A DNA stretch of 54,679 bases, from IMG/VR virus record IMGVR_UViG_3300037466_003757, positions 1-54,679 of that record; one strand, given 5' to 3'. The position numbers and the translations under genes were made by a program. Positions 8,937 to 51,603 of this stretch are shown here, piece by piece. A model generated the notes under the pieces. The model ran no database searches and was not told the DNA's origin. It saw nothing but the letters and a program-made list of their open reading frames with translations. Numbering within the stretch: the first letter of the stretch is position 1; every line of letters begins with the position of its first letter. This DNA comes from a virus. Taxonomy: Duplodnaviria; Heunggongvirae; Uroviricota; Caudoviricetes.

Positions 8937-8965
8937 GTCTCCTTGCTCCTAACTCGGGCCGCTCA

Positions 8966-10060: not shown

Positions 10061-11713
10061 CTACGGAGCGAAGATTGTCGATCCGGAGACGTTCGCGACC
10101 GGAGCGAGACCGATCTGCGAGGTCGTGGTGATCTGGAGAGATTCGGTACCGACCTTGGCGATACCCTCGAAGGTCTCAACGAACGTACGGTAGTCGTTCG
10201 TGTCGATCAGCGAGGAATCGCGGACGACGCCGAGATCCAGAATGCCACCATCGAGGAAGAGGAACGTGCCCTCCGCGAACAGCCACCACTTGATGGTCGC
10301 CGGGAAGTCGTTCAACGCGCCCGCGCTCTGGCTGGAGAACGTGTCGTCCATGTGCCAGGTGATGTTGATGTTGCGAGCGTCCAGCCACGAATTGATCGTT
10401 GCGTCGGTTTCGGCCAGTGCCTCGAAGTGAGTCGATGCCGCGATGTCCTCGCGGATCGCGTCCAGTACCCATTCCGGCATGATCGCGCGCAGCTTGACAC
10501 CACGCGGAACGCGGTTACGGTTGCGGTATGCAGCCGCAGCGCGTGCGACGGCCCGCAGAATATCGCGTCCGTAACCGGCGACGTACGAGCTGGTGACCGC
10601 GGTCGACGCAGCTGCGATCTTGTTGAGCAGCGACTGCTCCGCGAAACGAGCGTGCTGAACCAGCGCCAACTGGTTGTGACGCTGTACCAGCTCGGGGTAG
10701 GCGCGGGATACCAGGTTACCGAAGACCAGCGACAGCGTGACGGCGTCGGTAGTCGCGGTTACCTCGGAAGCGCAAGTGACCTGCAGGTGCGGCTTAACAG
10801 CCGGCGACGACGGGCTAGCGTCGTTGGCCGCAGTCCACAGCGAGATAGCGGACGTGTACGCGCCCAGTACCGGAGGCTGGATGTAACGGATACCGCCGCG
10901 GGTCGCGCCGAATGTCGGCAACGAATCGCGAACCGGCCGGATGTTCGAGCCGACACCGTAAATGTCGTAGTTCACCGGAAGCGGGGCGCAATAGCCACCG
11001 GACGCGGTGATCGCCTGTACGCTCGCGATGTTGTCGATCTTGGTCATGTTGCCGAGAACGTCGCTGCGATCCAGCTGACGCTCGTTCGGAATCGATGCCC
11101 GCAGCGAAACGACGGTACGCTTCTCACCGTCGCCGCCGTGGGATCCACGAACGCTATTGATCTTTTCGACCATGGCCTCGTCGATCGCCATAGTGGAGTC
11201 GTACTGCGCTCCTGCGATCAGGCCCTTGATGTCCGCGCCGGCGACGGGTACCGAAGCGATGGAAGCGACTACAGGAGCCTGAGCCTTTTCCACAACCTCG
11301 ACAGTATCGCCCGGGACGGTCACAGCAGATGCTGCCATCGCCAGCTCCTTGCTCTCCTCGATGTTCGCGCCCTCAGCGTCCTCGGCGCCGGGGTCGTTGT
11401 TTTTCTCGTCGCCGTCAGCTTCACCTTCGGTTTCGGTTTCGCCTTCGGTTTCGCCTTCGGTTTCGACGCCTTCATCATCACCTTGTTCGGCGAGACGAGC
11501 GGCTTCTTCCGCATCAACCGACGAATTCACGTCATTGATGAGTTCTTCGAACATTTCGATGCGCTGGACACCCATGAGTGCGTACTCCATGGTGTCGATG
11601 TCTTCGGTCTCATCGGCAGCCTCGAACGCAGCGATCAAATCAGCGCGCAGTTCTTCGCGCTCGTCTGCGGAGAGTGTCTTGAGCGAATCCAGGCGCTCTT
11701 CGAACGTCGCCAT
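10061..11713 (-). CDS. Major capsid (hexamer) protein with acidic N-terminal scaffold-like region
   Basis: Start MATFEERL with GGAGGAG RBS; ITASGGYCAP, RPVRDSLPTF, FLFLDGGILDLGVVRDS motifs. Confidence 0.9.
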   Translation of the reverse strand: MATFEERLDSLKTLSADEREELRADLIAAFEAADETEDIDTMEYALMGVQRIEMFEELINDVNSSVDAEEAARLAEQGDDEGVETEGETEGETETEGEADGDEKNNDPGAEDAEGANIEESKELAMAASAVTVPGDTVEVVEKAQAPVVASIASVPVAGADIKGLIAGAQYDSTMAIDEAMVEKINSVRGSHGGDGEKRTVVSLRASIPNERQLDRSDVLGNMTKIDNIASVQAITASGGYCAPLPVNYDIYGVGSNIRPVRDSLPTFGATRGGIRYIQPPVLGAYTSAISLWTAANDASPSSPAVKPHLQVTCASEVTATTDAVTLSLVFGNLVSRAYPELVQRHNQLALVQHARFAEQSLLNKIAAASTAVTSSYVAGYGRDILRAVARAAAAYRNRNRVPRGVKLRAIMPEWVLDAIREDIAASTHFEALAETDATINSWLDARNINITWHMDDTFSSQSAGALNDFPATIKWWLFAEGTFLFLDGGILDLGVVRDSSLIDTNDYRTFVETFEGIAKVGTESLQITTTSQIGLAPVANVSGSTIFAP

Positions 11714-11885
11714 CTTCTCCTCCGTACTCGAGAAAGTCTCGACAACTGACAATAGATAGTCTTGTCGACTTATGACTTCGATTCGAGGTACCGGAGACCG
11801 GGCGCTCTGGACAATGGTAATCACGTCTAATGAATCATTGCGACCCACCGTTAGTATTTAAATTTGTCGCGTCTGGAAAATCGCA

Positions 11886-11926
11886 CAAAAAAGCCGGAAC
11901 CCGATATTTCGAATTCCGGCTTTTTG
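11886..11926. terminator. Bidirectional terminator-like hairpin
   Basis: CAAAAAAGCCGGAA...TTCCGGCTTTTTG with A/T tracts on both sides, after protease stop. Confidence 0.7.
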
Positions 11927-11941
11927 TTTATCAGATCGCTA

Positions 11942-13510
11942 CTAAGCCGGCTTTCCCGATGCTTTTGCAGCAGTCTTCATTTTCTGCTTGTCCATCATCA
12001 TCTTCAGTCGACGGTGACGCTTCGCGTTCAGTCGTCCGCTGTCGATGTCGCGATCCACGCCACCTTCGGTATCGTTTGTCACATCCTCGCCGGTGTCGGC
12101 ATCTGTCGGAGCGGAATCGTCATTTCCGTCACGTGATCCGTTGTCGGGATCATCGACTGCGCCGGTCGAACGACTGCCCTTGGTGCCTGCCGCGGCCATC
12201 GAGGTGAGACCCTCATCCTCGTCTGCCTTGATCCGACGTCGTCCATGTGCCGGATTTGTGCAGTTCGAATCACACTGATCGATGGTGTGATTGAACTCGG
12301 GACCGCGGTCACGATCGCGTGCGTCGGTGTTGTGCACCACAGGAATGCTCGGATCAGCGTCTCCATCGAAGTCGCCGTCGCCGTCCATGCGGGATCCGTT
12401 CGGACCCTGATCCATGGTCTTCATTCCGCTATTACCGTCGCCGACATCCCGCATAACACCTTGTTCACGCAAATCCGGCTTAGGTTGACGCTTGGATTGC
12501 GTATCGATACCAAGACCGTCCTGATCGGTATCCTTCATTTCACGTGAATCGTACGAATCGTTGACCGTATCGTCCGGCGTGAGAACGAGCAGAACGTTAC
12601 GACCGTCGTCGTAGGTCACACGAAGCATGTCCGGACCGGCTGCAGGTGCAGCAGCGGTAACAGCTTCATCAGTCGATTCGGATACCCGCTCCGAATACAG
12701 ACGCGGCTTTTGATCGATAGGTGTGAGATTGTCGTACCAGTTACCGTCATCGGTCTTCTGCTCGTCGGCGACGCGTTGTCCACCGGCGACGACAGACTCA
12801 AGATCCGCGACGCGTGCAGCGACCGACTGGAGCGCCTCCATGACACCAGCCTCACGCTGCAGTTCGTACATCGCAGCAGCACCCGCAGCGACAAGTGCGG
12901 TGAGTTCGCCGGATGCGACCATCGCCCGAGCGACAGGGAAACCGGGAGTATTGACCTGACAAACCGCGACCAGTTCGAGTCCGTTATTAATCGGACGCCA
13001 GTCTCCGGACGGCGCCGAAGCTCGCAGAGACCGAATCTGCTCCTCGGATACACCTGGACGCAGACCACCGCTGACCCAAATACCGTGCTCGTCTTCACCG
13101 CACGCGACATCGGCAACTGCAGAAGCCGTATCGTCGTAGTGCTGTACCGCTGCGCCTGCATCAGCGTTCAGAGGAGCGTGCCCACCAGCGAGTGTAATTT
13201 GACCGACCGGTACCTCGTTTCCCGCATCGGTCTTGAGCATACCGGTACGGAAAAATGCGTAATTGGATTGGGAACGTGGCGGTTTAGTTCCAGGCGGTAA
13301 ACCGATATGTGAAACTTCCCACGGAGCGATATGTCCATAAATCTTTCCATCAGCCGTAATTGTAATCGGCGTCGGCCGCGACAATTTCGGATTTTGGAAC
13401 CAATCATCTGGCGGATAAAGCGGGCCGCCAGCTGCTGTTAGCGCATTGTAGACCATGGGGCTGTTGTCCACGAGTTCTTCGTACACCCCGTCTACGAGAC
13501 GCAAGGTCAT
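11942..13510 (-). CDS. Capsid maturation (prohead) protease with acidic C-terminal extension
   Basis: PPDDWFQNP, IYGHIAPW, GEDEHGIWVSG, SGDWR motifs; upstream of major capsid. Confidence 0.8.
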   Translation of the reverse strand: MTLRLVDGVYEELVDNSPMVYNALTAAGGPLYPPDDWFQNPKLSRPTPITITADGKIYGHIAPWEVSHIGLPPGTKPPRSQSNYAFFRTGMLKTDAGNEVPVGQITLAGGHAPLNADAGAAVQHYDDTASAVADVACGEDEHGIWVSGGLRPGVSEEQIRSLRASAPSGDWRPINNGLELVAVCQVNTPGFPVARAMVASGELTALVAAGAAAMYELQREAGVMEALQSVAARVADLESVVAGGQRVADEQKTDDGNWYDNLTPIDQKPRLYSERVSESTDEAVTAAAPAAGPDMLRVTYDDGRNVLLVLTPDDTVNDSYDSREMKDTDQDGLGIDTQSKRQPKPDLREQGVMRDVGDGNSGMKTMDQGPNGSRMDGDGDFDGDADPSIPVVHNTDARDRDRGPEFNHTIDQCDSNCTNPAHGRRRIKADEDEGLTSMAAAGTKGSRSTGAVDDPDNGSRDGNDDSAPTDADTGEDVTNDTEGGVDRDIDSGRLNAKRHRRLKMMMDKQKMKTAAKASGKPA

Positions 13511-13637
13511 AGTCTCGGTCCCTTCCGTTGACGACGGCGACAGTGGACGCCGCATTCGTAGCAAATTCTACGTACTTATGCGTCAACGGAGCGACTCACC
13601 GTTAGGAGACGGTGAATATAGATGAATAACTAAAGTA

Positions 13638-15242
13638 TTAGTGTTTTTTACCTGTTTGTTCTGTCGGAGCGTGTCCTGGCCAAAATCCGGTTGCACGATG
13701 GTGCAAATTGGCACAATATCCGTCTACTTCGTGTGCTGGAAGATATTTTCCAACAGCGCGACGACAACGATCGAAATCACCGGGAACGCCCCATCTAATC
13801 TTCGCAACAGCGCGCGGATTACTCGTCCAATATTGCTTGAGACGTTCGGCGCCTTCTAAATGACCTTTTGCACGATCGCTCAATGATTGACTTGCGTCGG
13901 CGATCAACGGCTCGCTATTTGCGATGAATCGCTGCTCTTCAGCGAGCAAAGCAGCCGGAAGCAAAAGCTGCATAATCGATTCAGATGCGCGTAAACTTGC
14001 AAGCAATGATAATGCGGACTTCATAGACGTCCGTCGAATGTCATATGTTCGCTGCGTGGCGTGTGTATCGGCAGCTTCGATTGCCGCGGTGAGCGACCAA
14101 CCGTTTTGTGTATCGGTACTACTCCAACGCACGTGCGCGGAATTGCATGCGCGCAAGCGTGCGGTTTGTGCAGCGCTCAATCCAGTGCAATATGCGCGAT
14201 TGAGTTGCGCTGCAGCAGTCATTCCCTTACTTGCGGTTTCTTTTCCGCCGCTGTTAGCTGCAGTCGCTTTACCGGTTTTACCCGGAACGATTTGCTGTTG
14301 CTTGACGGGTTCGTCCATCAGATTATCGCCAGCTTGTGCGTCGCCGTCGCCTGACGTCGTAACCTGTTGTGCTTGTGATGCATCGGTCTGTTGCAGAACG
14401 GAGCTCAGCGTATCGCCCTGTAATTCGACCAATGGAGGTGGGGAAACCGACATGAGCGAATCAAGCGTGGTCTGATCGAGCGTCCACGCCCCACCATTCC
14501 GAATATAGACTTGAGGACCGGGCGAAATTTTGATGACGCTCATAACCGCAGTCGTATCCGTGGGATCCACGATCGCGTAAAAATGGGAACCGTCATCGAT
14601 GTCACCAGGAGCGACTGCAGCGATCAACGGTACCTCGTCCAAGAACAGAATCGGAACTTCTTCGTGAAGCAGAACCGACTGATGACCAGATGTGAAAGCG
14701 GACGCGGTAAATGCGAGAAGATCGGCGTCGAGCGCAATACCGTCACGACCGACCAGCGAGCTTTCGACCGGTACAGACGTCCATTCACCAGCAACGGTGA
14801 GAACTTCTGCCCGCGCGAAATCGATGTCACCGTTCGGTACACGTACGACATGCTCAAGAATACGTGGCTCGTTAGCAGCTGTCAGACCGACGTAGAGAAA
14901 CGCATTATTATCGTAGCCAATACGTTCGAGTTTGACGTCTCGATCGCGCTCAGCATTTCTGATCAGTCCGGAAATAATTTTCTCAGACCATTCGCGACCT
15001 TGTTCGCCGCCGAATGCACTAGCTGTAATGGGATCGTTCGTCTTTTCCCATACGTGCAACGCTTCTGAAGCAGTGACGCGACCCAACGTGACAAGCTTGA
15101 GAACAAGATCACGATCGTGTTGAGTCATAGACGCAGTGGACGGCGCGGAATACACGCTAGCGGCCACGGTCGCCACGTCACGTGGAACCGAATACGTGCG
15201 CTCGCCCGCGCTCTCCCATACAATTACGTCCGCGTTGGTCAT
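13638..15242 (-). CDS. Head-module hypothetical protein
   Basis: 534 aa; C-terminal LKQYW...KIRWGVPGDFDRC...GYCANLH motif recalled from actinophage head proteins. Confidence 0.65.
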   Translation of the reverse strand: MTNADVIVWESAGERTYSVPRDVATVAASVYSAPSTASMTQHDRDLVLKLVTLGRVTASEALHVWEKTNDPITASAFGGEQGREWSEKIISGLIRNAERDRDVKLERIGYDNNAFLYVGLTAANEPRILEHVVRVPNGDIDFARAEVLTVAGEWTSVPVESSLVGRDGIALDADLLAFTASAFTSGHQSVLLHEEVPILFLDEVPLIAAVAPGDIDDGSHFYAIVDPTDTTAVMSVIKISPGPQVYIRNGGAWTLDQTTLDSLMSVSPPPLVELQGDTLSSVLQQTDASQAQQVTTSGDGDAQAGDNLMDEPVKQQQIVPGKTGKATAANSGGKETASKGMTAAAQLNRAYCTGLSAAQTARLRACNSAHVRWSSTDTQNGWSLTAAIEAADTHATQRTYDIRRTSMKSALSLLASLRASESIMQLLLPAALLAEEQRFIANSEPLIADASQSLSDRAKGHLEGAERLKQYWTSNPRAVAKIRWGVPGDFDRCRRAVGKYLPAHEVDGYCANLHHRATGFWPGHAPTEQTGKKH

Positions 15243-15867: not shown

Positions 15868-18800
15868 TTACGCTTTTCCCGCTGAACCCTTTTTCTTTGC
15901 TTGCTCAGCTGCGTACGCGACTCGCATCGGGCCTTTTTCAGTGATCTTTGCGTCGCTCCAACTTTTTCCGAATTCGCGTTCGACGAAGTCATGGAAATCC
16001 TTAGACGACGTATCGACGTGCGATCCGTTGGTTGGAAGACCTCGTTTCGTTAATTCGGATCTGACCGCACCGAGTTTCTTCGATGCGTCCGACAATTCAG
16101 CATATGCCTTCGATTGCTTTTCGCCCATCACCTTGCCGGAATTTCGCGATGCTAAAGCGTCGACCTTGTTTTGGGCGTTGGTTTGCGCTGCTTGTACTCG
16201 TTGATGCGCAATATGCAATTGATCGTCCGTTAATTTGCTGTGCGGACCGTCACTAGTTGTTGTTGATTTTTGCTTCGCATTCAGTACTCGATTAACCGAC
16301 TCCAGCTGCGCATTGATCGCTGGACGCTGATGAGCGGGAGAAATCTTGTACTGATACCGCAGATGACGTTGCTTGTCCTCAAGCTCCTTATCGGAGAGCT
16401 TGCTGTGCTCGGCGTCGTATTCCTTCGCAGATTTGACTGTCACGTCAGGCGTCTTCGGTTGCGCAGTAGCCGTATTCATCGCAGTTCGATGCGCGGCTTC
16501 AGCTCGTGCAGCGCCAAAGTTTTGAGCAGCTGATTTTGATTCGACAGCTTCACGTGCTTTTTTCGCGTCAGCGTAACGATTAGCCGCTTTGTCACGTTCT
16601 GCCTCAGACGCATTACTGCGCGACTTATTCAGCCAATCTTGTTTTGTTGCGTTTTCCCAATCTTTCGCTTTGCTCACTTCATCGGTTGTTGAAACAGACT
16701 TAGCCGGTGCCGATTCGCTCGCAACGTGATGATTCAGCGTCTTGTTCGCGACCGTTTGCTTCTTGCCGGTATCGTCCCACTGAACCGCGGAGTGCGTCTG
16801 ATACGTTTGAATCAGCTTACCGGTACGTCCGTTCTCGTCACGAACCGTATCACCGATCTTGTGTTTGTGACCGTCAGCAAGGGTGGTCTTAGCTTGGAAT
16901 CGTTCTTCATCGTTGCCCTTGGCCTTGAGATTGACCTTACCGAGCTTCTGGAACTTGTCACGAATAAATACCGGTTTTGCAGTCTCAGCTGGCTTTTCAG
17001 CTGGCTTCTCAGCTGGCTTCTCAGCTGGCTTCTCAGTCGATTTCGCAGAATCGCCTGTACGTCGCTTTTGCTCATCAGTCAGAATACTATGCAACGTACT
17101 TGCGTTTTCCAGCAACTGATACGCTTTGAGACCGGGTGAAGTCTTACCGATCATACGATTATTCACCGTATGCGATTCAGCGATTTTAACTGCAGCTTCG
17201 CCCGAATTGACGCGATTCTTAGCAAGCGTGATCTGTTTTGCAAGCTCGTCATCAGTGAGTCCGCGTGCTATTTCGCGATTCTTGGTATCGTCTTTATCGC
17301 TGAATTTAACTGTTTCAGACGCAGACGGCGCAGATGATGTATCCGATTCACGAGGAATTTTCGGAATTTCAATATTGTTCTCTCGCATGTATTTCGCGAG
17401 ATCATCGATTTCCGCCCGAGCGTTTCGCGCCTTGCTGTCGTCGCCATTCTCGCGTGCGATTCGATTCGTCTTTACCGCCGCGTGATAATCAGCGAGAACA
17501 TCTTCTTTTTTGAACTTCGGCACGTTAGTCGGCGTACTAGTCGGCGCGTTGTCTTCGGCGTCGCGATGCGCCCGCTCTCTCTTCATCGCTTGAACGAGAC
17601 GCCCGGCATCCTCAGCCGCCTGACGCGCCTTCATCTCGCGCGGACTTTGCGTATTACCGCGATGTGCACGTGCCGCAGACTCGGCTTGATCTCGTTTCTT
17701 CTGGAGATCTTTGTCCGCGTTCTTCAAACGGAGATCAAGTTCCTTGTCAGACATACGTGCAGCAGTCTCCGCGTGCTTACGCATTTCCGTATCAAATCCG
17801 GACAAGTCACTACGACCAGGTGCAATACCGCGTTTGACAATTTCGTCGTTGATCGACCTGTTATGCGCCGAAGCAGCGTCGATGTCGCTTTGACCGTATT
17901 TGTCACGACCGTATGCTCGTCTGAGCTGCTTGTTGGACTCGTGAAGCTGATCACGAAGTTCGTTGTCAGACAGTTTCGAGAAATCGTTTTTACTGTTGTT
18001 AGAAGGTTTTCTCGATTGCTCTTCCGCTTTAAGAGCCGCCATCTTATCGCTGACTGCATTACGTTCATCAGCTGTCTTAGCGTTGAGATACATCTGCATC
18101 AATTGCGGCTTCGATTCCGCAAGTTGAGCATCAGTCATTCGCGAAAAGCGATCTTTGTCTGATACTTTCGCCGGAGAAGATTCTGTATCAGGTTTTTTCG
18201 GCGATTCAGTTTGCGTTCGTTTTTGAGCTTTATCGGCCACAGAACCTGGACGAATTACCTCGAAAGTATCTGCGTCTTTTGTTTTCGTTTCGGAGTCTGG
18301 TTTGGCGACGATCACGCGATGTTCGTGTTTCAGATGCGCTTGCGATCCATCTTTGAACTCAACGTGAGTACGTCCAAAGAGACGACTTGGCTTGACACTG
18401 ATAACCTCTTTAGTTGCACCAGACATGTCCGAAACGACATGATCACCGGCTTTGAGTTCGTCGCTCCGTCGTGTATTACTTTTACTCTGCAGATGCGCTA
18501 CTGCCTTCGCAGCACCTTCAGCTGCACGCGCGGCATGCGATCCATCCAGCGGAGTACCAATTGGCAATTTATAGCGTTCGACGCCGTCTTGAGACGCAAC
18601 TTTACGAACACCGGACGCGGTTACGCCTTTTTTGTCACGTCGTAATTTACGACGCAAACGTTCCGTCATCGATGGTTCATAATCTTGTTCGAGACCGCGT
18701 GCAAATGCGTCGCCGAGTGTTCGCATATTGATTGCAGTTTCGTCATCGTGGTGACGATAAAACGTTTCGTCTTCGTCAGTACGCTTATCCATACGTTCGT

Positions 18801-19713
18801 GAAGAGCTTGCGCACGCTCTTCGCGGTCCTGCAACGGACTGCTGAATCGGCTGTTTTTTTCCGGCTCGTCATCGTACGTGTGAATGTGCGCACCTTCTGG
18901 TACGCTTGTCTTGCGAATTTTTCCGTCCGGTGCGGCCGTATGCAGCGTAATGGCACCGTTGTCGTGTTCGGTGTGAAGCAATTTCTCGGAAGCGACACGT
19001 CCATCGTTATGAACGAATCGTACTTTGATACTGCCTTTCACCGATGACGGAAGTTCATGAAGTGAAGCGACTTTTTTGGCAGTATACGGACCGATCGCGT
19101 CCCGACCGAGATTGGTGATCTCGTTCTTTGCGTTACCGCCCTGACCGAGCGGAGTGCCAATCGGCAACTTGTATCGTGCGGCACCTTCAGGTGATGCTAC
19201 CTTACGACCCGATGCCACGATCGCCTCGGCGTCGTCTGGATACATACGACCCGCGTGAACGAGCTGCGTGACAGCCGATTCGAAGAGTCCGACAAACTGA
19301 TCAGCATCGATATTCGGATCACGCATCGAACGAACGACCGCGCTGGCCGCGACTGCCTCGGCGATTTCAGGAGTCGGCGCTTCGCTGACCGACGCAGCCG
19401 TTTCTTCGGCAAGTCGCTTCGCTTCATTGAAAATTTCTGACCGCGACGCGTCGTACTCACGCAACGATACGATATTGCTGGCTTCCGCGCGCCACTCTTC
19501 CGGAAGAAGAGGTTCGAGACCCATTGCTCGTGCGATGCGAATGACGTACCACTTTTGGTCCGCGTCACCGCCGAGCTTAGTGCGCTGGATTGCCGCGGCA
19601 AGCTGCTCCCTGTTCGCGATAGGGGTAATGCGTTGCACTGTCGGACTCTCCCTCCGGGCGATTGTATCGTTATGGATGGTACGTTGCGCGCCATGTAAGC
19701 AGCGAACCATCAT
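15868..19713 (-). CDS. Large repeat-rich putative internal virion protein
   Basis: 1281 aa, K/A/S/D/E-rich; duplicated RKVAS..G..RYKLPIGTPL; six SKLSDxEL-type repeats; SH3/KOW-like segments. Confidence 0.75.
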   Translation of the reverse strand: MMVRCLHGAQRTIHNDTIARRESPTVQRITPIANREQLAAAIQRTKLGGDADQKWYVIRIARAMGLEPLLPEEWRAEASNIVSLREYDASRSEIFNEAKRLAEETAASVSEAPTPEIAEAVAASAVVRSMRDPNIDADQFVGLFESAVTQLVHAGRMYPDDAEAIVASGRKVASPEGAARYKLPIGTPLGQGGNAKNEITNLGRDAIGPYTAKKVASLHELPSSVKGSIKVRFVHNDGRVASEKLLHTEHDNGAITLHTAAPDGKIRKTSVPEGAHIHTYDDEPEKNSRFSSPLQDREERAQALHERMDKRTDEDETFYRHHDDETAINMRTLGDAFARGLEQDYEPSMTERLRRKLRRDKKGVTASGVRKVASQDGVERYKLPIGTPLDGSHAARAAEGAAKAVAHLQSKSNTRRSDELKAGDHVVSDMSGATKEVISVKPSRLFGRTHVEFKDGSQAHLKHEHRVIVAKPDSETKTKDADTFEVIRPGSVADKAQKRTQTESPKKPDTESSPAKVSDKDRFSRMTDAQLAESKPQLMQMYLNAKTADERNAVSDKMAALKAEEQSRKPSNNSKNDFSKLSDNELRDQLHESNKQLRRAYGRDKYGQSDIDAASAHNRSINDEIVKRGIAPGRSDLSGFDTEMRKHAETAARMSDKELDLRLKNADKDLQKKRDQAESAARAHRGNTQSPREMKARQAAEDAGRLVQAMKRERAHRDAEDNAPTSTPTNVPKFKKEDVLADYHAAVKTNRIARENGDDSKARNARAEIDDLAKYMRENNIEIPKIPRESDTSSAPSASETVKFSDKDDTKNREIARGLTDDELAKQITLAKNRVNSGEAAVKIAESHTVNNRMIGKTSPGLKAYQLLENASTLHSILTDEQKRRTGDSAKSTEKPAEKPAEKPAEKPAETAKPVFIRDKFQKLGKVNLKAKGNDEERFQAKTTLADGHKHKIGDTVRDENGRTGKLIQTYQTHSAVQWDDTGKKQTVANKTLNHHVASESAPAKSVSTTDEVSKAKDWENATKQDWLNKSRSNASEAERDKAANRYADAKKAREAVESKSAAQNFGAARAEAAHRTAMNTATAQPKTPDVTVKSAKEYDAEHSKLSDKELEDKQRHLRYQYKISPAHQRPAINAQLESVNRVLNAKQKSTTTSDGPHSKLTDDQLHIAHQRVQAAQTNAQNKVDALASRNSGKVMGEKQSKAYAELSDASKKLGAVRSELTKRGLPTNGSHVDTSSKDFHDFVEREFGKSWSDAKITEKGPMRVAYAAEQAKKKGSAGKA
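16985..17036 (-). repeat. 12-bp tandem repeat (about 4.3 copies) encoding EKPA
   Basis: TCAGCTGGCTT(T/C) x4 on + strand. Confidence 0.9.
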
Positions 19714-22178: not shown

Positions 22179-22553
22179 CTACGACGCCAGGAGGTCGGAG
22201 AGGGTCATCGTACCGTCGCTGGCCTGCGCGCTGTCCCATAGCGGCACGACGTTGCTGTCTGTATCGTACGCATCGTATTGGTCGATATCGGCGTCGTCAG
22301 TATCGTTGTCAGGGTCCATCGGCACCCAATAGCCCTGATCGCGTCGATATACGCCCTGCGGAGTGAGCAGTACCATTGCGTGGACCACCTGATCGTCGTC
22401 ACACAGTCCGACCAACGATTCGCCTTGTCCGACAGTGAAATCGACGCTAGCTACGAGCACCCGAAGCGACGGATCGTCCCAGTTCGGCATGCCATCGTCG
22501 TCGAGAAAAACGCCTCCGACGAAACGATAACCGTTACCCATCTCATCGAGCAC
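22179..22553 (-). CDS. Acidic hypothetical protein
   Basis: 124 aa ORF in operon; shares motif with 534-aa protein. Confidence 0.7.
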   Translation of the reverse strand: MLDEMGNGYRFVGGVFLDDDGMPNWDDPSLRVLVASVDFTVGQGESLVGLCDDDQVVHAMVLLTPQGVYRRDQGYWVPMDPDNDTDDADIDQYDAYDTDSNVVPLWDSAQASDGTMTLSDLLAS

Positions 22554-23066: not shown

Positions 23067-26000
23067 TCATCGGCTCATTACGAGCGTATTGCGATGTGTG
23101 AAGACCACGAAGTCCTCGTAATTACCTTGCGGAATATCGAATCGGTCGATACCAGTAGCGAGAGCGTATCGCCCGACATCCTGGATAAACTCAAGTCGTG
23201 CGGAGATACCGAGAAGCTCGGTCAGCTCCGGATGCGTATTCATCACCTTCTCAACGAGCTGCTCCGATTCCTTTCTGTCTTTGACAGTCGCCTTGAGCGC
23301 ATCTTTCGAAAACGCAGGCAGTTCGGGAATTTTGGAATCGATAGCTCGAGCGAAATCGAGCACCTTCTTCGGTGACGAGAATCCCGACACGAACGCTTCG
23401 CCACTTGTCGATGTGTACGAAATCGATTCGTCACGTGTTTCGTTGAAACGTCTCTGACTCGCGCCAGCAAAGTCATAAACGATTCCCGATTCAATACTTC
23501 CAGCGCCGTATATACGAGATCGAGCCTTCGAACTCGTTTCTGCCTTAGTCAACGTAACTCGGTAGCGCATCTCGTCGGGGTCGAACCGATTAGAACTGCC
23601 GGGAGTCTTGAATAACAGCTTGATTTCACGTCCACCGCTATAGTATCCGTGATCGATTTCAACTTCGTCGAGTTGAAGACCTTTTTTCTCGTAGAAATTG
23701 ATCATCGATTCCGCATCACCAACCATTTGACGAATCTGAGCATCGGATGGATTCGCCAGTGACGAATGATTCGCTAAAGCGCGTTGCCACGTGGGATTCG
23801 TATTTGTCGGCTTGGTATAGAGTTCGGCGTCACTCGGTGCAAGGCCCAGTGACTGCATCAATTTGAGACGACTATCAGAACCCGATTTGACCGACTTGAT
23901 CATATCGGCGTAAAGATCACCGTACTTACGTGTTTTCGCATCGGGTCGATTAACGATACGCGTGACATTGCTGCCATTACCACCGGCGTAACTATTTTGC
24001 GCGGTCGAAAGCCGGTTACTGGCGTATGATCCCGATCCGTAGACGCCTTCACCAGCGAAATACGTGCCGGAACGGAAATCGGTAGCAGATTCCGCTGATC
24101 CGACACCGCGATAGTATACAGTGAGATTGTTTTTCGCTACGTATGCATCAAAATCGGCTTTAGGAAGTCGTACAACGCCCGCATCTCCACCAACCAATTT
24201 TGTAAACTCGTACATCAGCGGATCTTTTTGCGTGGTTCCGTCGCTGGCCATTTTGAAACTCGGCCGCGAACGTGAACCCGGACGCTTGACGCGTTCAGCT
24301 GCCTCGGGAATAACGAGTCGCGATGCGAGCAAATCGTTATCTTGTTTGCCGTCATCCAACATGGTTTTCGATGTCGGCAGCTTGTAACCGAGTGCTTGAA
24401 CCGGATTGTACCGAGTTTCAACGAACGGCGCGCGATGTCCTGGAAGTACGTCACCAGATTTCGGCTCTTGAACGTTCGGATCGGTCGCTTGAGCGATTAC
24501 GTCGATCGCCATTTTACCCGTCGATTTCGGCAACATCGCTTGCGGAGTGAGCTTACCGTCGAGAACATTCATATTAGCGGCCATACCGGATGACCCGTTT
24601 CCGCGTTCATAGGTGAGAAGTTGACGATCGTCCATATTGACGCTCTCCATCGTATCGAGCGTCTGATCGTGGTAGTAACTCACTCTAGGCGGCAGATTGA
24701 TATCTTCGCCAGCCGAATTTTTGAGCGCTTGACTTGGTCGTGGTATCGCGTTTTGCTTGTTCTGAAGGTTATGCGCATCACGCATAGTGAGATTACGCGC
24801 CGTCACAACAGTAGACTTGCTACCCGCTCCGAACGTGTATTGAGGATTCGTCGGTTCGAAATAGAAATCACGCTCTGATTGCGTAAGCTCTACCCATTTA
24901 TCGGGTGGATTGATATTTTTTTCGCGATTTGCCCAATCCGCATGCTGATCGAAATCGCCCACATAATAAATCTTGTCTTTGTCGCCGTCGAAAACGAAAA
25001 CCGGCTTGAGATGATTGATTATATTGCCGCTAGCATCTTTTTTGGGATCGGTAGGCATAACGTAGGAGCGTACGTTGTGCGACAGCCATGCCGGACGATC
25101 GATTTTCTTGATTTTTGGAGAATACCCATTCGAGCCCACTCCATCGTCTATGGGCCATTTTTTCGACAATGCAGATTGAATATCGTAAGGCTTATCATCG
25201 TTCGGTCCGTGCGTATTCGCAAGATTTGCGGCTTTCACCCAATCCGGCGACTTGCCCAGCTTTTGAGTGAGATTATTGATGTTACCGTAAGCCGATATCG
25301 CGGAACTCAAGAAACGTAAGAGTTCGTTATTCTCCGGTTTCGCTCCGTTGTAGCGTACCTCGCCTTGACGGTTTGATCCAAGATAATGCGCTTCACCATC
25401 GCGGAGCATCCAAATACCCGGATTCATGGCGGCGCCATCACGAATGTCGACCACCTGATCGCCGGGACGTAATTCACCGTATTCGCCGAGATTACCGGAC
25501 TCGTACTTGACCTTGATCGGTACCGGCTTGAGAATTTTCTTCGCGTCATCGAGCGTATTGATCTGCGGAGGACCGGGTTTTACAGCTGCTTTACCGGCAC
25601 GAGCCGCTTTGGCTGTTGCTCGCTTGTCTGCCAGCGCTTTCGCTTCCACAACCAACGCATCGTGATCGACACTGTCGAGCTGACGGAAATTGTCGGCCCG
25701 AATACGAACGGGAAGAATATCTTTCGGATTCGCCTTGTTGTGAAGCAATGCGATAATGTCACGATCACTTTCGGTTCCGTCCTTCTCGATCGCTTTCGAG
25801 AAGAACGTCACCTTGACGTTGTGCGTCAGCGAATATCCGACCGGATGCGGCGTCTTGCTGAAATCGTGATTCTTGAGATCGAATTCGATACCCTTCGGGT
25901 TAGTTGCTGGCTTAGAAACGGCAGGCGCAGTCTTCGCCGCGTCGAAGTCAACGAACTGGGTCTTGATTCGAGATTTGTCCGCCGCGCGATGATGACCGTC

Positions 26001-28040
26001 AAGCAGATAATCGACACCGTTGATACGCGCAACGATCGGACCGAGATCTTTCGCACCACGTCCGGATACACCGCTGTTCGTGTGCGCCTGATCTTGCGTT
26101 GGCATCAATTTGTCAGTGGCGAACGTCTTGTTTGTGAACTGGCCTGCGCGGATCATTGCTTCCGCTTGCTTGATGTAGTCGTTTTGAATCGTGTTGCCAT
26201 CGAACGGTGTCGTGTACAGACCGGACTTCGCGGGTGCTGCTGGCGTCACTACAGGCGCAGCCGGTACGTTGCTAGTCGGAGCAATCGTTCCCTTATCGGG
26301 CACGAGCGACAACTTCTTGACGTTGACGACCTTGCTCTTACCGTTGTCCATCTCGACACGAGCGTACATCGGAAAGAGCTCTTTGATCGTACCGTCGCCT
26401 GGATGCTTGTTCGGATCGGTTCCGGCAGGAAGATCGAGTGCGACACGATCGCCGATCGATGACTGTTCACCGGTCGCGTACACCGATTTCACGGACGACA
26501 GGTTTGACCGAAGCGGTTCGAGAGCGTCACGCTGTACGGCGAGTTTCTGACCCGCGGCGGTCTTGATTCCGATCGTATTACCATCAGCAGATACGGAATC
26601 GACAATCCACGTATCCGGATATTTCGCCCCAGTTGACTTTGGCTTTCTCTTGAGCCAAACCGGCGAACCCGGTGCGATCGGAACCGCCGTACCCGGATCA
26701 CGTTTACGAATCGCGGGAACGAGCGACGTATTTGCGACGGGTGCAGGCGATGGTGCGGGAACTGCCGGCGCTGCCGGAGTTGGCGTTCCCTGTCTTACAG
26801 CAGGTGACGGAACAGACCCACCAGAATTACTACCGCCGCTACCACCAGGATTAGCCAAATGAGCGTGCTGAGCATTGCCGCCTCCGTATTGCGCTGCCCG
26901 TGCGGCCAAAGCCGCCTTACCTGCCGGAGTCGTCTCCGGAAGCTGATAACCGTACGAAGCACCCAACCACGCACGACGTGCGACAAGCATGTCGGCGGTG
27001 GATTTGTCCATACCGGCGTCCTTGACGATTTGCTCGATCTCGTCCGGCGACAGTGCGAGAATACGTTTGACCGCGTCCTCTTCGTCCGTTTTCGTCATGC
27101 CCGCGTATGCGCTCTGCTGTCGCAAACGTGTGATCTCCGCAGTCATGTCGACGGGAAGCTTGGGCTTCGTACCGCCACGTGCGCGATATTTCAGCGCACC
27201 GCCGGTATCGACCCGAATCGGCACACCGTCTTCCGTGATGCGGATATTGTCGTTGCGCGGCGCGTCGTAGTTACCCAACCAGGCGTCAACGATGAAATTC
27301 TTCCGAATACTTTCGCGCGCGAGACGTTTCTCGGAATCGCTGAGCTGATACCAGCCCTCCGAGTTCTCGATCTTAGACAGCAATTGCTTGCCGTCCGGTG
27401 ATGTTCGAATCTCGGGTACCGCGGCGCCCGCAGCTGCGTAAAGCTTGTTCGCCGCTACCTCGTTGGCGACGTGATCTGCCGTCTGCGGCTTCTTGACGTA
27501 CCAGACGTCGCCAGTCTTCGGATCTTTATAAAATCCGCCCTGATTCGAACCGCCCTGACCCTGTACGAATTGGAAACTGGACGGCGAAAGTTTGGCGACC
27601 GGTGCAGGCGCCGAAAAGAGCTTTTTCGCGGGAATCGTTCGTTTGACGCCGTCACTACCTGTGACGTCGATATTACCGGATGCGTCGAGTTTATCGACCG
27701 TTCCACGCATCCAGAGACCAGTATCTGTTTTCCACTTTACCGATCCGCCCTTGTCGATGAAGCGTCCGTCGCCTCCACGCGGGTGGAGAATATTGAACGC
27801 GTCACTGAGAGCGTGGCGCACGACGTGGAACTGACCCGTCTGCTGGCCTGGAATCGCTGCTGCCACGGTACCCGACTGTATCACACCGCCGGTAGTCTGT
27901 AAACCACGAACGGGCGGTAGAACGGCTGCAGCGGCGAGAATCGCCCGGGTATCGATGGTTTGATAGGTGTGACCAGATGAACGCCTACGTACCGGGTACG
28001 TTACGTAGCCCGGAGTCGACGCTCCAGCTGCCGGTGCCAC
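23067..28040 (-). CDS. Polyvalent virion-associated protein: SH3-like, HipA/PI3-4-kinase-like, ParB-like and ADP-ribosyltransferase-like domains
   Basis: GSNQGG..WYVK..NEVAANKLY..VDAWLGNYD..NDNI..VDTGG; YLLDGHHR; VYYRGV..GEGVYGSGSY..; directly after portal with GGAGG RBS. Confidence 0.75.
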   Translation of the reverse strand: MAPAAGASTPGYVTYPVRRRSSGHTYQTIDTRAILAAAAVLPPVRGLQTTGGVIQSGTVAAAIPGQQTGQFHVVRHALSDAFNILHPRGGDGRFIDKGGSVKWKTDTGLWMRGTVDKLDASGNIDVTGSDGVKRTIPAKKLFSAPAPVAKLSPSSFQFVQGQGGSNQGGFYKDPKTGDVWYVKKPQTADHVANEVAANKLYAAAGAAVPEIRTSPDGKQLLSKIENSEGWYQLSDSEKRLARESIRKNFIVDAWLGNYDAPRNDNIRITEDGVPIRVDTGGALKYRARGGTKPKLPVDMTAEITRLRQQSAYAGMTKTDEEDAVKRILALSPDEIEQIVKDAGMDKSTADMLVARRAWLGASYGYQLPETTPAGKAALAARAAQYGGGNAQHAHLANPGGSGGSNSGGSVPSPAVRQGTPTPAAPAVPAPSPAPVANTSLVPAIRKRDPGTAVPIAPGSPVWLKRKPKSTGAKYPDTWIVDSVSADGNTIGIKTAAGQKLAVQRDALEPLRSNLSSVKSVYATGEQSSIGDRVALDLPAGTDPNKHPGDGTIKELFPMYARVEMDNGKSKVVNVKKLSLVPDKGTIAPTSNVPAAPVVTPAAPAKSGLYTTPFDGNTIQNDYIKQAEAMIRAGQFTNKTFATDKLMPTQDQAHTNSGVSGRGAKDLGPIVARINGVDYLLDGHHRAADKSRIKTQFVDFDAAKTAPAVSKPATNPKGIEFDLKNHDFSKTPHPVGYSLTHNVKVTFFSKAIEKDGTESDRDIIALLHNKANPKDILPVRIRADNFRQLDSVDHDALVVEAKALADKRATAKAARAGKAAVKPGPPQINTLDDAKKILKPVPIKVKYESGNLGEYGELRPGDQVVDIRDGAAMNPGIWMLRDGEAHYLGSNRQGEVRYNGAKPENNELLRFLSSAISAYGNINNLTQKLGKSPDWVKAANLANTHGPNDDKPYDIQSALSKKWPIDDGVGSNGYSPKIKKIDRPAWLSHNVRSYVMPTDPKKDASGNIINHLKPVFVFDGDKDKIYYVGDFDQHADWANREKNINPPDKWVELTQSERDFYFEPTNPQYTFGAGSKSTVVTARNLTMRDAHNLQNKQNAIPRPSQALKNSAGEDINLPPRVSYYHDQTLDTMESVNMDDRQLLTYERGNGSSGMAANMNVLDGKLTPQAMLPKSTGKMAIDVIAQATDPNVQEPKSGDVLPGHRAPFVETRYNPVQALGYKLPTSKTMLDDGKQDNDLLASRLVIPEAAERVKRPGSRSRPSFKMASDGTTQKDPLMYEFTKLVGGDAGVVRLPKADFDAYVAKNNLTVYYRGVGSAESATDFRSGTYFAGEGVYGSGSYASNRLSTAQNSYAGGNGSNVTRIVNRPDAKTRKYGDLYADMIKSVKSGSDSRLKLMQSLGLAPSDAELYTKPTNTNPTWQRALANHSSLANPSDAQIRQMVGDAESMINFYEKKGLQLDEVEIDHGYYSGGREIKLLFKTPGSSNRFDPDEMRYRVTLTKAETSSKARSRIYGAGSIESGIVYDFAGASQRRFNETRDESISYTSTSGEAFVSGFSSPKKVLDFARAIDSKIPELPAFSKDALKATVKDRKESEQLVEKVMNTHPELTELLGISARLEFIQDVGRYALATGIDRFDIPQGNYEDFVVFTHRNTLVMSR

Positions 28041-29984
28041 TCAGTACCTCCCGTAGTCCGTCGAACTCGGTACGCCGTTCCGCGTGTATCCCCCGTTGCC
28101 GAGCGACTTGTCGCGTACCATCGATGACCCACTGTCTTGGTTGTTTCGGTTATCATACGTCTGCGGACCCGTGGGAGCAGAACCTCTTGCGCTATTTCTT
28201 GCAGATCGTGCCGCGGTTTGCTGTGCGCTCTCGGGATCCATATTTCCGTCGCGAGTCGTCGCATCAGTAGGAGCGACCACTTGACCGTAGAGCAGTTCCT
28301 GTGCACTCTCCGGCATCGGTACCGGTGATGACTGGATATTCGCGGCTCGTGCCGAGTCGGTGACGTTCGGAAACGCGGTCTTGAATAACGTGCTCATCTG
28401 ATCCGGTTGCGGTACGCCCTTGTTGAGCATGTAGCGTAACGCCAGTTCGTGTTCGGACGGTGCGTCCGAATCGCTGAAACCGTTCGCACGTCGCCATGCG
28501 TCGGCACCAATGGCGAAGTTGTCGAATCCCTTGTCCGCGGCAGCCGAATCGTCGGGCTTGATCACGAGTTCGGACGGATCGTACCAGATACAGACGGCGT
28601 CGAGATCGTCATCGGTGAGCTGCGGGAACGATCGTTTGAGCATAGGTCGCAGATACATCATCGTGATCGCGTCACAGAACAGCAACGCCATCGGTTCGAT
28701 GTGTTCGCTGTACATCGCGTCCGTCATGTGCCGGGCGTTGTTGTACTTGACGTTCTCGTAACCGGTGACGACGTTTTTCGGAAGATCGAGACCCTGGAGA
28801 ATTCGGCTTAGCGTTTTGTCCAGTCGTTCGGTCAGCCATTGATCGACTTGACGATTGATCTCGATATAGCGAATGTTCTTCGACTCGTCACCGGGACCGG
28901 TCACCATCATCGGCACCACGCTCGCGGCGCTAGTTTCGTCGGTAATCGGGGTCGTGATCGAGTCGTAGATGCCCGCGACCAATGCGTCCTGTTCTTCTTC
29001 CTCGGACGCGATGTCCTCGGCGACAGATTCACCTGCGGCGCTCAAACCATCGGGAATATACAGAATACCCGCGTTCATACGAGAACGCGCGACCGTGCGA
29101 ATCATTCGCTGAAGCGTGATCAATTCGTCGCATGCCTCGCGGAGACCGAGCATACTGGATTCGGGTTCGCTCGAGTATCGCGGATGCTCGCGCCAGATTC
29201 GGGCGATGAACGTATTGGACGGCAATACGATGTCACCGTAGACGGTACCCGCAGTCGTCGTTGACGAACCGGCGCGTTGCGACCGCAGAATGATCTGGCC
29301 GCCCTGATTGACGATCAATTCGCTGGTCGATTTGATGTACCAGCGGTTCTTGATTCGTACCAGATAACACTCGCCAGCCACGCTCAGATTGAGGGCGAAC
29401 ATACGAAGTAATCCGCTGACACCGTTACCGCTTCGCAGATCACGCATGAGACGGTCGGCGTACTGCATGACTTCGGTCGTGATATTCGCAGGCAGCGGAG
29501 GAAGCGGAGCTTGATCGTCCGTCTTGTCTGGAGTTTCGTCGGCTCGTTGCCGATTCCGGATTTCTGCCATAGGAAGCGGAACTGCGTCTTCATCGAAAAC
29601 AACAGCAGGGTATAATTTCAGACGCGACATGCACGCGCCGACAATTCCGAATCCGTATTTGATTTCGCCAATCGCGTCGTAATACGCCCAGGCGTCGTTT
29701 TGCCATTCGGTATAGACGCGATTGCGAAGACCCATAATGTCGTCGGCATTACGGAGATTGATTTTCATACCGGACGCGACCAATGCGCGATTAGCGCTCC
29801 ACGAAGCCGGTTCAGGTCGTCGTTCCCAGAGTTCGAGATCGCTACTAGAAGACGCCAGATCAGACGGTGACGAACCAATGCGCGCACGATTAACGTCGCC
29901 AATACCTCGACCGGCACGACGCGTCTGTACGTCGTTGATAGAATCCACGCTTGCAGCGAGCCGGATAGTTTCTCTGAATCCCAT
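28041..29984 (-). CDS. Portal protein
   Basis: 647 aa; WQNDAWAYYDAIGEIKY, LNLSVAGECYL, RIWREHPR motifs of cluster-B-like portals. Confidence 0.85.
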   Translation of the reverse strand: MGFRETIRLAASVDSINDVQTRRAGRGIGDVNRARIGSSPSDLASSSSDLELWERRPEPASWSANRALVASGMKINLRNADDIMGLRNRVYTEWQNDAWAYYDAIGEIKYGFGIVGACMSRLKLYPAVVFDEDAVPLPMAEIRNRQRADETPDKTDDQAPLPPLPANITTEVMQYADRLMRDLRSGNGVSGLLRMFALNLSVAGECYLVRIKNRWYIKSTSELIVNQGGQIILRSQRAGSSTTTAGTVYGDIVLPSNTFIARIWREHPRYSSEPESSMLGLREACDELITLQRMIRTVARSRMNAGILYIPDGLSAAGESVAEDIASEEEEQDALVAGIYDSITTPITDETSAASVVPMMVTGPGDESKNIRYIEINRQVDQWLTERLDKTLSRILQGLDLPKNVVTGYENVKYNNARHMTDAMYSEHIEPMALLFCDAITMMYLRPMLKRSFPQLTDDDLDAVCIWYDPSELVIKPDDSAAADKGFDNFAIGADAWRRANGFSDSDAPSEHELALRYMLNKGVPQPDQMSTLFKTAFPNVTDSARAANIQSSPVPMPESAQELLYGQVVAPTDATTRDGNMDPESAQQTAARSARNSARGSAPTGPQTYDNRNNQDSGSSMVRDKSLGNGGYTRNGVPSSTDYGRY

Positions 29985-51343: not shown

Positions 51344-51603
51344 GCTCGCATCGCTTTCATCGCTACTTCGGGTGTCACACTTTCGCCGTCATCGAACGTA
51401 TTCCACACACTCGGATCGAGTTTCTGAAGCAATCCCATACTCGGGTCGGAAACCCAACCGGGACGCTCACCCCATCTCATCTCGCGAGAGATGCGTGCCA
51501 TTCGCTCGATGCGCGCCTTCAAATCCGCCTCGATCGGATCCGCCGCGATCTCATCGTAGATCCATGCCTTATCGGCTTCGCTCATGTCCTCGTCCATGCT
51601 CAT
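51340..51603 (-). CDS. Small hypothetical protein
   Basis: 87 aa, ATGA overlaps at both ends. Confidence 0.65.
   Translation of the reverse strand: MSMDEDMSEADKAWIYDEIAADPIEADLKARIERMARISREMRWGERPGWVSDPSMGLLQKLDPSVWNTFDDGESVTPEVAMKAMRA

Follow-up and report, generated by a model that had tools for sequence, protein, structure and literature searches.

To our knowledge, few of the phage proteins that accompany the DNA into the host have been studied, the main examples being T4 Alt, N4 vRNAP, and P1 Dar. At the start of infection, T4 Alt and T7 Gp0.7 ADP-ribosylate or phosphorylate host RNA polymerase and translation factors; Alt is an ADP-ribosyltransferase (ART) of the R-S-E type that is packaged in the head and injected, and the Gp0.7 kinase is expressed and not packaged. 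The polyvalent proteins of phages and conjugative elements join two to fifteen effector-type domains in one polypeptide, with ART, kinase, and ParB/Srx domains in their repertoire, and are predicted to be packaged and injected (Iyer et al., 2017, PMC5512222).

Here we describe P0001, a protein encoded in a window of 54,679 nucleotides (the whole stretch of DNA analysed) from a phage whose 173-kb viral record has terminal repeats. In our reading, to which we give roughly two chances in three, P0001 is a polyvalent effector, produced late alongside the portal and incorporated into the procapsid, that probably enters the host together with the DNA. It offers a conserved case in point, with three predicted activities, that can be tested in the cultured relatives GodonK and Phendrix.

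The reading frame and its genomic setting

The first-pass annotation had placed a frame of 1657 residues directly after the portal gene, and the DNA bears this out: positions 23067-28040 hold a single, uninterrupted 1657-aa reading frame with zero internal stops, on the minus strand, as do the portal gene and all parts of P0001 given below. The GTG start at 28040 adjoins the portal TGA (28041-28043), and translational coupling of P0001 to the portal gene is therefore suggested; a strong ribosome-binding site, GGGAGG (28047-28052, minus strand), lies 6 nt 5′ of the start. The portal gene itself (28041-29984) matches phrog_776 at E 1e-96. The P0001 gene sits inside the head operon, with the portal on one side and the major head protein (10061-11848) on the other. 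This order of portal and then homologue is kept in four other phage lineages, namely, Gordonia phage Phendrix and three metagenomic phages; the portal of the P0001 phage is 50% identical to those preceding the homologues at two loci (L006 and L007), and, of 80 IMG/VR loci, about 26 have a related portal no more than 2 kb upstream. Both cultured relatives, GodonK (gp67) and Phendrix (gp66), are Gordonia phages.

The same phage carries a separate MuF gene (51600-52676), in which the PF04233 MuF model finds its sole match in the whole genome (51648-51839, E 6.5e-10); no MuF domain was detected in P0001 by this search. Because the phage has its own MuF gene, P0001 is no substitute for MuF. Scans of P0001 with Pfam, PHROGs, and NCBIfam, whole and in pieces, gave nothing significant, and none of the curated HMMs HipA_C, HipA_2, ParB_N, ART-PolyVal, and Phage_Mu_F matches it. 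A megablast search of the phage collection with the gene as query gave zero matches, and PDB sequences, searched with phmmer and three domain profiles, returned chance matches only (chloramphenicol acetyltransferase, S-layer propeller, Tic22).

Modules of the chain

P0001 is laid out as beads on a string, with disordered Gly/Pro/Ala linkers between the modules, three of them long and with pLDDT <50. The order is an HPRGxDGRF motif with an SH3 barrel, a kinase, two SH3/KOW modules, a ParB/Srx-like domain, ~450 residues, and an ART with a nested module. Domain-wise structure prediction, Foldseek, and profiles recovered every module that the first-pass annotation had named, and the motifs it had quoted all lie where it had put them and are invariant across four full-length homologues (39-55% identity).

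A variable N-terminus (aa 1-74; 27819-28040), whose conservation is limited to the closest homologues, precedes the invariant HPRGxDGRF motif and the first SH3-like barrel (aa 75-148; 27597-27818). The motif stands close to the N-terminus in 24 family members; the barrel is modelled with five strands, and its homologues match SH3 in Pfam weakly. This segment is a candidate capsid- or portal-targeting module. Beyond the kinase and a disordered Gly/Pro/Ala-rich linker (aa 386-445; 26706-26885; pLDDT <50), two SH3/KOW-like barrels follow in tandem (aa 455-582; 26295-26678), so that the SH3/KOW modules proposed at the outset amount to three barrels. Foldseek matched DSIF KOW tandems (E 2.8e-5), the kin17 KOW domain, and HERC2; these rows carry no model range and were assigned to aa 455-582 by their length of ~130 columns and their strand pattern.

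The domain between the first barrel and this linker (aa 150-385; 26886-27593) is an atypical protein-kinase-like domain, of CtkA/CotH/PI4KII/AFK/HipA-like type by structure matches and motifs. It had been read as HipA/PI3-4-kinase-like; the kinase fold and motifs are indeed in place, and the nearest proteins are CtkA, CotH, PI4KII, and AFK. The AF2 model (mean pLDDT 81) has a bilobal protein-kinase-like fold, and GQGGS, WYVK183, NE194, DAWLGNYDAPRNDN252-265, and RVDTGG fall at aa 161-281. The proposed catalytic residues, assigned from sequence order and model secondary structure rather than by superposition, are the Gly loop 161-168, K183, E194, D259, N265, and D278. Of 25 representatives (37-76% identity), 24 conserve GQGGS161-165, K183, E194, D259...N265, and D278-T-G; the kinase motifs have been lost from one homologue, P0010. 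HipA_C reached E 0.2 at best against pieces of P0001, HipA_2 had no match on the whole genome, and the kinase piece alone had no match at E 1e-3 among 5.8 billion proteins of 138-440 aa; its nearest neighbours in a language-model atlas are viral clusters of ~223 aa.

The kinase family is unannotated, with neither a Pfam nor a PHROG model. It occurs in at least 395 IMG/VR stretches and ranges over actinophage-like and Gram-negative phage contigs. Among the 86 kinase ORFs examined, 77 encode 820-4980 aa; the other nine (230-625 aa) are in part truncated at contig ends and in part second kinase ORFs next to a large one. At least 38 of the 86 also encode an ART, which belongs to one of two clades, and 17 have an N-terminal MuF/min_cap2. 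Compact homologues of the P0001 ART have Pfam MuF or minor-capsid domains at their N-terminal side, and kinase-ART cassettes too are fused to MuF/Phage_min_cap2. Gp117 of Pseudomonas phage Dolphis joins the kinase (36% identity, E 2e-25) to ADPrib_exo_Tox and has non-structural genes on its flanks. Since a family without a Pfam or PHROG model sits in the giant ORFs of hundreds of phage contigs, often near an ART, naming it would improve the annotation of many "hypothetical" giant phage proteins.

The ParB/Srx-like core (aa 615-705; 25926-26198) comprises an L-x-PTQ strand, a PIVA strand, a YLLDGHHR strand-helix with DGHHR at aa 681-685, and a fourth strand; the modelled strand order fits the ParB/sulfiredoxin core of four strands and two helices with a conserved Arg after the third strand. 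The earlier assignment of the DGHHR domain is strengthened by a profile search of 5.8 billion sequences, which matched ParB_N-annotated proteins at E 7.7e-6 and 1.2e-4, with this annotation on 13 of the 28 matches listed, and by hhalign to ParB_N proteins (94%, E 1.4e-7), in which the aligned stretch, the PIVA-YLLDGHHR-strand core, spans 36 columns only. The ParB_N model itself had no match on the whole genome, and neither the Phendrix nor the Dolphis record yielded a ParB_N match. A ParB domain was also absent from the best 50 matches of each structure search with the 726-residue N-terminal model; this is no evidence against ParB, because kinases took all 50 places. A small all-beta domain, confidently modelled, comes next (aa 715-797; 25650-25898), followed by a region common to the nearest homologues only (aa 800-1254; 24279-25643); this middle region had no usable match among PDB sequences. 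Together with the module nested in the ART domain, it makes up about 40% of the chain.

That the C-terminal domain is ART-like and split along the chain, as first claimed, holds on both counts. Its first half (aa 1262-1394; 23859-24257) contains R1311, Y1339, and Y1351, with the motifs YYRGV (1309-1313) and GVYGSGSY (1332-1339); the closing helices and three strands (aa 1606-1657; 23070-23225) contain D1621, R1624, D1632, E1642, and R1650, with GIDRFDI...EDFVVFTHRNTLV at 1630-1654. Nested between them is a module of helices and a four-stranded sheet (aa 1395-1605; 23226-23858). The halves are 0-58 aa apart in about 35 compact homologues and 150-270 aa apart in P0001 and its kinase-bearing relatives, the insert of P0001 measuring ~210 aa. 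The PatG C-terminal domain was considered for this insert and set aside, the likeness (E 0.03-0.15) being too weak.

The ART model (pLDDT 87, pTM 0.88) shows the split beta-sheet fold of the diphtheria-toxin/PARP-like branch. ART-fold proteins (ADP-ribosyltransferases, RES/ParT/MbcT toxins, AcrIF11) account for 23 of the 24 best VIA rows, with alignments covering both halves; an atlas shape search placed the model at TM 0.76 to a cluster with ART-PolyVal in 12% of its members, and the language-model neighbours of the region are ART-PolyVal and AcrIF11 carriers. Foldseek of the model against the PDB gave nothing at E ≤ 0.001; the nested insert probably accounts for this. ART-PolyVal (PF18760, with an H-Y-D site) had no match anywhere in the genome with E allowed up to 10, and strand 1 of the P0001 ART carries R, not H as in PF18760. 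Across 55 sequences, R1311, Y1339, and Y1351 hardly vary. From sequence and model, we propose E1642 as the candidate catalytic Glu; it lies where strand 5 is predicted to begin and is shared by most kinase-linked relatives, not family-wide, and some members of the wider ART family lack an acid at this position. The idea that the ART-like part is MuF itself was rejected, as fused relatives keep MuF N-terminal, apart from the homologous region.

Packaging, ejection, and competing explanations

We infer the packaging and injection of P0001 from the position of its gene and from the MuF fusions of its relatives; a packaged, injected takeover device would fit both the portal synteny and these fusions. 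P0001 would be co-produced late with the portal and assembled into the procapsid, where its N-terminal motif and SH3 module may dock it to the portal or the capsid interior. A predicted complex between aa 60-150 and the portal hints at such a contact: it scored 0.42 (best of three controls, 0.00), a weak score by the tool's own calibration, in which solved complexes reach the docking mark 58 times in 80 and mismatched pairs 2 times in 110, only 7 of the 80 and both mismatches doing so at ≤0.60. The runs share at least 68% of contacts, with a partner pLDDT of at least 65.

Once ejected into the host together with the phage DNA, the predicted kinase would phosphorylate host proteins and the predicted ART would ADP-ribosylate them through its putative R1311/Y1339/Y1351/E1642 site, and the ParB-like domain may act at the incoming genome by DNA binding or nicking, or by nucleotide binding. 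Kinase and ART may form a functional pair, because both recur together in many phages. Together, these activities would switch off or divert transcription, translation, or defence in the host during the first minutes of infection, and the recurrence of kinase with ART suggests that pairing phosphorylation with ADP-ribosylation is a common strategy for pre-early takeover or anti-defence. In a bolder version, which we think unlikely, the two are a coupled two-enzyme cassette, in which both might, for example, modify one host target in turn or act on the ADP-ribose adduct itself, and which phages would have assembled repeatedly with two ART clades and deliver from the capsid; if true, such cassettes would constitute a widespread class of dual modifiers, injected and so far unrecognised, present in at least 395 viral contigs.

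The post-portal slot of the gene, and a ParB-like domain and SH3/KOW barrels that are typical nucleic-acid or protein binders, could also mark P0001 as an internal protein of the head that is packaged mainly for structure or assembly—as a plug near the portal, a holder of the DNA end, or scaffold-like cargo, in function like SPP1 gp7/MuF—and whose enzyme-like domains are inactive or work only inside the capsid, leaving the host untouched. We regard this as distinctly unlikely, even with the loss of the kinase motifs in P0010 and the variability of the acid at the catalytic position of the wider ART family: both the phage and its relatives have a MuF gene of their own, and the retention of the kinase catalytic motifs (all but one of the 25 representatives, at 37-76% identity) and of the NAD-site-like R, Y, and Y (55 sequences) amounts to a purifying selection that is hard to explain for dead domains.

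Less probable again is a late cytoplasmic enzyme or toxin that stays unpackaged and might modify host or phage proteins in morphogenesis or act against co-infecting phages, its adjacency to the portal reflecting no more than shared timing. Such a protein would suit the kinase-ART gene of Dolphis, which lies among non-structural genes, and the presence of MuF/min_cap2 in just 17 of the 86 kinase ORFs. It is harder to reconcile with a start that adjoins the portal stop, with a gene order kept across lineages whose portals are about 50% identical, with the fusion of the MuF head protein to compact ART homologues and kinase-ART cassettes, and with a best structural match of the ART region that belongs to a packaged pre-ejectosome protein (PMC12002296). 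The least probable option, a polyprotein whose linkers are cut by the prohead protease into kinase, ParB, and ART products that are only partly retained in the head, draws on the three long Gly/Pro/Ala linkers (pLDDT <50) and on the precedent of phage P1 DdrB, a processed polyvalent protein, but N4 vRNAP is packaged without processing (PMC5512222), and the option would amend, and is compatible with, our reading of P0001 as a packaged effector.

Relation to described systems

The large pre-ejectosome protein of cyanophage A4 (PDB 9k3a chain B) is a moderate match to the ART region of P0001; no ART domain is described for it in the paper (PMC12002296), and A4 is a podovirus whose head module differs from that of the P0001 phage. 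Helicobacter pylori CtkA, Bacillus CotH, PI4KIIα, and actin-fragmin kinase share only 10-15% identity with the P0001 kinase, without an HMM match, and unlike them it is embedded in a giant protein of a virion operon. The actinophage [quoted passage not shown] and the MuF polymorphic toxins (PMC5576092, PMC9503650), in which a head-associated carrier bears a C-terminal ART, resemble the compact ART homologues and the kinase-ART cassettes fused to MuF/Phage_min_cap2; unlike them, P0001 has no detectable MuF, and its ART is diphtheria-toxin/PARP-like, not VIP2/C3-like (R-S-E). With T4 Alt and T7 Gp0.7, P0001 likely shares the same job, a likeness of roles and not of ancestry.

P0001 is best read as a member of the already described polyvalent class: it unites kinase, ParB-like, and ART folds with three SH3/KOW barrels in one phage-encoded chain, adjoins the portal in conserved synteny, and has in common with the published examples (PMC5512222) a giant multi-effector chain beside portal-terminase packaging genes. 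The kinase of those proteins, by its description, is a truncated Ser/Thr/Tyr type found mainly in Verrucomicrobia-Chlamydia and Bacteroidetes (pro)phages, whereas that of P0001 is nearest to CtkA, CotH, PI4KII, and AFK; and ART-PolyVal has an H-Y-D site, whereas the ART of P0001 has R-Y-Y and a proposed E, with a nested module. Thus, the class is known, and the domain architecture of P0001 is new.

Gene context and relatives of the polyvalent protein

The 172,958-bp viral record bears direct terminal repeats, and on the minus strand of its first 54.7 kb, the window, lies a head-to-tail morphogenesis operon. The portal gene (28041-29984 (-); phrog_776, E 1e-96) is followed by the 1657-aa ORF (23067-28040 (-)), several further minus-strand genes, the major head protein (10061-11848 (-)) and the major tail proteins (7644-9961 (-)). 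Because the GTG start of the ORF at 28040 adjoins the portal TGA, with GGGAGG six bases 5′ of the start, the two genes are almost certainly co-translated. The first-pass annotation, which read the product as a kinase, a ParB-like domain and a split ADP-ribosyltransferase (ART) in one chain, was correct in all its coordinates and quoted motifs.

No curated library recognizes the protein (Pfam, PHROGs and NCBIfam scans; PDB sequences). A search of 5.8 billion proteins yielded four full-length homologues, 39-55% identical to it. The Gordonia phages Phendrix and GodonK encode a 1479-aa "hypothetical protein" at the same post-portal place. An exhaustive search with aa 458-1657 retrieved 101 representatives, about 25 of which share a common plan: an HPRGxDGRF motif with an SH3 barrel, the kinase, two SH3 barrels, a variable middle and a C-terminal ART-like domain, with ParB, between the SH3 barrels and the variable middle, in only some of them.

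In three metagenomic phage relatives the portal is preceded by the terminase, a small MuF gene and a small gene, in that order, and followed by the polyvalent gene; these portals are ~50% identical to that of the window. The portal homologue of one relative, L007 (3248-6004 (+)), has 918 aa, and its alignment to the window portal stops at about residue 375 and restarts at about 730, which suggests that ~355 aa were inserted, perhaps as an intein or an extra domain. Downstream of the polyvalent gene, the head modules of the relatives L006 and L007 hold further candidate packaged enzymes: in L006 a 488-aa ADPrib_exo_Tox protein (11369-12835), and in L007 a protein of 1037 aa bearing a Topoisom_I domain (11818-14931).

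Two genes downstream of the polyvalent gene lies an acidic 124-aa ORF (22179-22553 (-)), whose C-terminal ~75 aa recur in Phendrix gp68 (45% identity, E 4e-18); the relatives L005 and L006 keep them in genes of ~80 aa at the equivalent position. The ORF product might serve the polyvalent protein as a chaperone or partner. The N- and C-terminal parts of a 1281-aa protein (15868-19713 (-)) match the proteins of 612-819 aa that L005, L006 and Phendrix encode at this position (E 1e-7 to 4e-21), so its centre is a lineage-specific expansion. The products of 11942-13564 (-) and 13638-15242 (-) align with parts of PHROG profiles whose labels are portal, protease or virion structural protein, and both, like that of the MuF gene of the window, match parts of phrog_21406 (1668 positions), which may be a polyvalent-type family.

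Kinase, SH3/KOW and ParB-like modules

The N-terminal region (aa 75-800) was modelled with AlphaFold2 from a 27-row alignment (mean pLDDT 81). The HipA/PI3-4-kinase-like domain proposed at first pass is borne out: an all-against-representatives structural search placed atypical kinases on top (CotH, 13.6; PI4KIIα, 12.7; actin-fragmin kinase, 12.5; MavQ, 12.4) and Fam20, Rio and HipA (10.5) lower, consistent with a Foldseek match to CtkA (E 4.5e-5). Language-model neighbours bear HipA_2, PI3_PI4_kinase, Act-Frag_cataly and LepB_N, and the Gly-rich loop, K183, E194, the D259...N265 loop and D278-T-G are kept in 24 of 25 representatives. Since phages whose Gram-negative hosts lack phosphoinositides also encode this kinase, we favour proteins as its putative substrates. 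In a 1159-aa homologue (P0010) the kinase Lys, catalytic loop and D-x-G are lost and the ParB and ART parts retained, as in a putative natural kinase-dead variant.

This kinase is a module that recurs widely in giant proteins of phages. A catalytic-loop peptide pattern located it in at least 395 IMG/VR stretches, each of which tblastn confirmed; the 80 loci kept contain 86 kinase ORFs, 77 of them 820-4980 aa long. The remaining nine are frames of 230-625 aa; some are truncated where the contig ends, and others neighbour a large kinase ORF as a second one. A Pfam scan of nine kinase ORFs revealed in six a MuF or minor-capsid domain, then the kinase, then ADPrib_exo_Tox/ART; a seventh has the ART, with no MuF domain detected. 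Local profiles, which give lower bounds, found a VIP2-like ART in at least 32 of the 86, the present ART family in at least 6 and MuF/min_cap2 in at least 17, and Dolphis gp117 likewise pairs the kinase with ADPrib_exo_Tox. The exact combination including ParB occurs in one of the 80 loci and is limited to the near family. In each of six viral contigs (L026, L040, L055, L058, L076 and L078) a large kinase-bearing ORF with a VIP2-like ART adjoins a second one, of ~510 aa, whose kinase is C-terminal.

The three SH3/KOW modules of the earlier annotation are seen in the model as barrels, one at aa ~100-145 and two at ~460-580. Foldseek gave ~130-column matches to the tandem KOW domains of DSIF (E 2.8e-5), kin17 and HERC2, which would fit the tandem pair, the match rows giving no model range; the N-terminal barrel has weak SH3 Pfam matches in two homologues. 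Complex prediction of aa 60-150 (motif and first SH3) with the portal scored 0.42, as against 0.00 for the best of three controls, with contacts agreeing between runs to at least 68% and a partner pLDDT of at least 65. Of 80 solved complexes 58 attain this mark, as do 2 of 110 mismatched pairs; scores at 0.60 or under comprise only 7 of those 80 and both mismatches. The prediction thus gives weak support for binding of the portal by this segment and would raise the odds of packaging only slightly.

Direct HMM and PDB-sequence tests gave no match for the ParB-like domain, nor was ParB listed in structure searches of the N-terminal model, whose rows were filled by kinases. A 14-sequence profile of aa 600-800 matches ParB_N-annotated proteins among 5.8 billion sequences (E 7.7e-6 and 1.2e-4), with PF02195 in 13 of the 28 listed matches. 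Profile-profile comparison with ParB_N proteins (94% probability, E 1.4e-7) aligns a short stretch, the PIVA / YLLDGHHR / next-strand core, and the strand-helix order of the model is consistent with a ParB/Srx core. On these grounds we accept the predicted DGHHR domain, as first annotated, into the ParB/Srx superfamily; DNA nicking and NTP binding are putative.

A split ART-like domain and its link to MuF

The ART was described at first pass as split, and comparison supports this. In about 35 compact homologues the counterparts of aa ~1265-1390 and ~1610-1655 are 0-58 aa apart, whereas in the 1657-aa protein and its kinase-bearing relatives the halves are 150-270 aa apart; the split is thus a nested insertion, sited at a hot spot.

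A model of aa 1255-1657 from a 55-row alignment (pLDDT 87, pTM 0.88) found no match in the PDB by Foldseek. The ART-like fold is supported by a gap-tolerant aligner, whose matches include diphtheria toxin (6.8), cholix toxin (6.7), exotoxin A, several PARPs, RES/ParT/MbcT toxins and AcrIF11; by an ESM Atlas shape search, with TM 0.76 to a small cluster (ART-PolyVal in 12% of members) and TM 0.61 to another (DUF3990 in 23%); and by language-model neighbours bearing ART-PolyVal and AcrIF11. The Pfam ART-PolyVal model had no match in the whole genome, and the domain is not filed under PF18760.

Near-invariant across the family are R1311-G, G-x-G-x-x-G-N/S-G-T/S-Y1339 and Y1351 in the first half and D1621-x-G-R1624, G-Y/I-D1632 and N/H-R1650 in the second; in our own reading, by sequence order, they would parallel H21, Y54 and Y65 of diphtheria toxin. 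E1642 opens the predicted fifth strand, the place of the catalytic Glu in ARTs. Because this site is E or D in most kinase-linked relatives and missing in some compact members, enzymatic activity is plausible only.

Pfam Phage_Mu_F was found in 10 of 63 short homologues and Phage_min_cap2 in 3 of 63, N-terminal to the ART-like region in every case checked. The head protein MuF thus commonly carries a member of this ART family as C-terminal cargo. The Pfam MuF model, run on the genome, detects no MuF domain in the 1657-aa protein; its sole match is a 358-aa gene (51600-52676 (-); Pfam E 6.5e-10; PHROG head morphogenesis, E 5e-20). This gene lies ~22 kb from the portal, adjoining a primase/polymerase-like gene (53001-54623); the small MuF gene of the relatives lies two genes upstream of the portal.

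Comparison with known polyvalent proteins

Polyvalent proteins, giant multidomain chains that phages and conjugative elements encode, often beside portal-terminase genes, are predicted to enter the virion and to be injected; among their protein-modifying domains ARTs are the commonest, and kinases and DdrB-like ParB domains occur too (Iyer et al., 2017; PMC5512222). Five metagenomic proteins (P0026, P0028, P0033, P0053 and P0059) with 3-6 tandem copies of the present ART-like domain recall the 12-copy ART protein described in the same study. MuF-ART fusions are likewise already known (PMC9503650). Such fusions are annotated in actinophages. The 1657-aa protein is a member of this polyvalent-protein / MuF-ART kind. 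What looks new is a CtkA/PI4KII-like kinase family (compared with the 2017 kinase by description only) for which neither Pfam nor PHROGs has a model and which recurs paired with ARTs, an R-Y-Y-E ART with a nested module, and the architecture of the protein.
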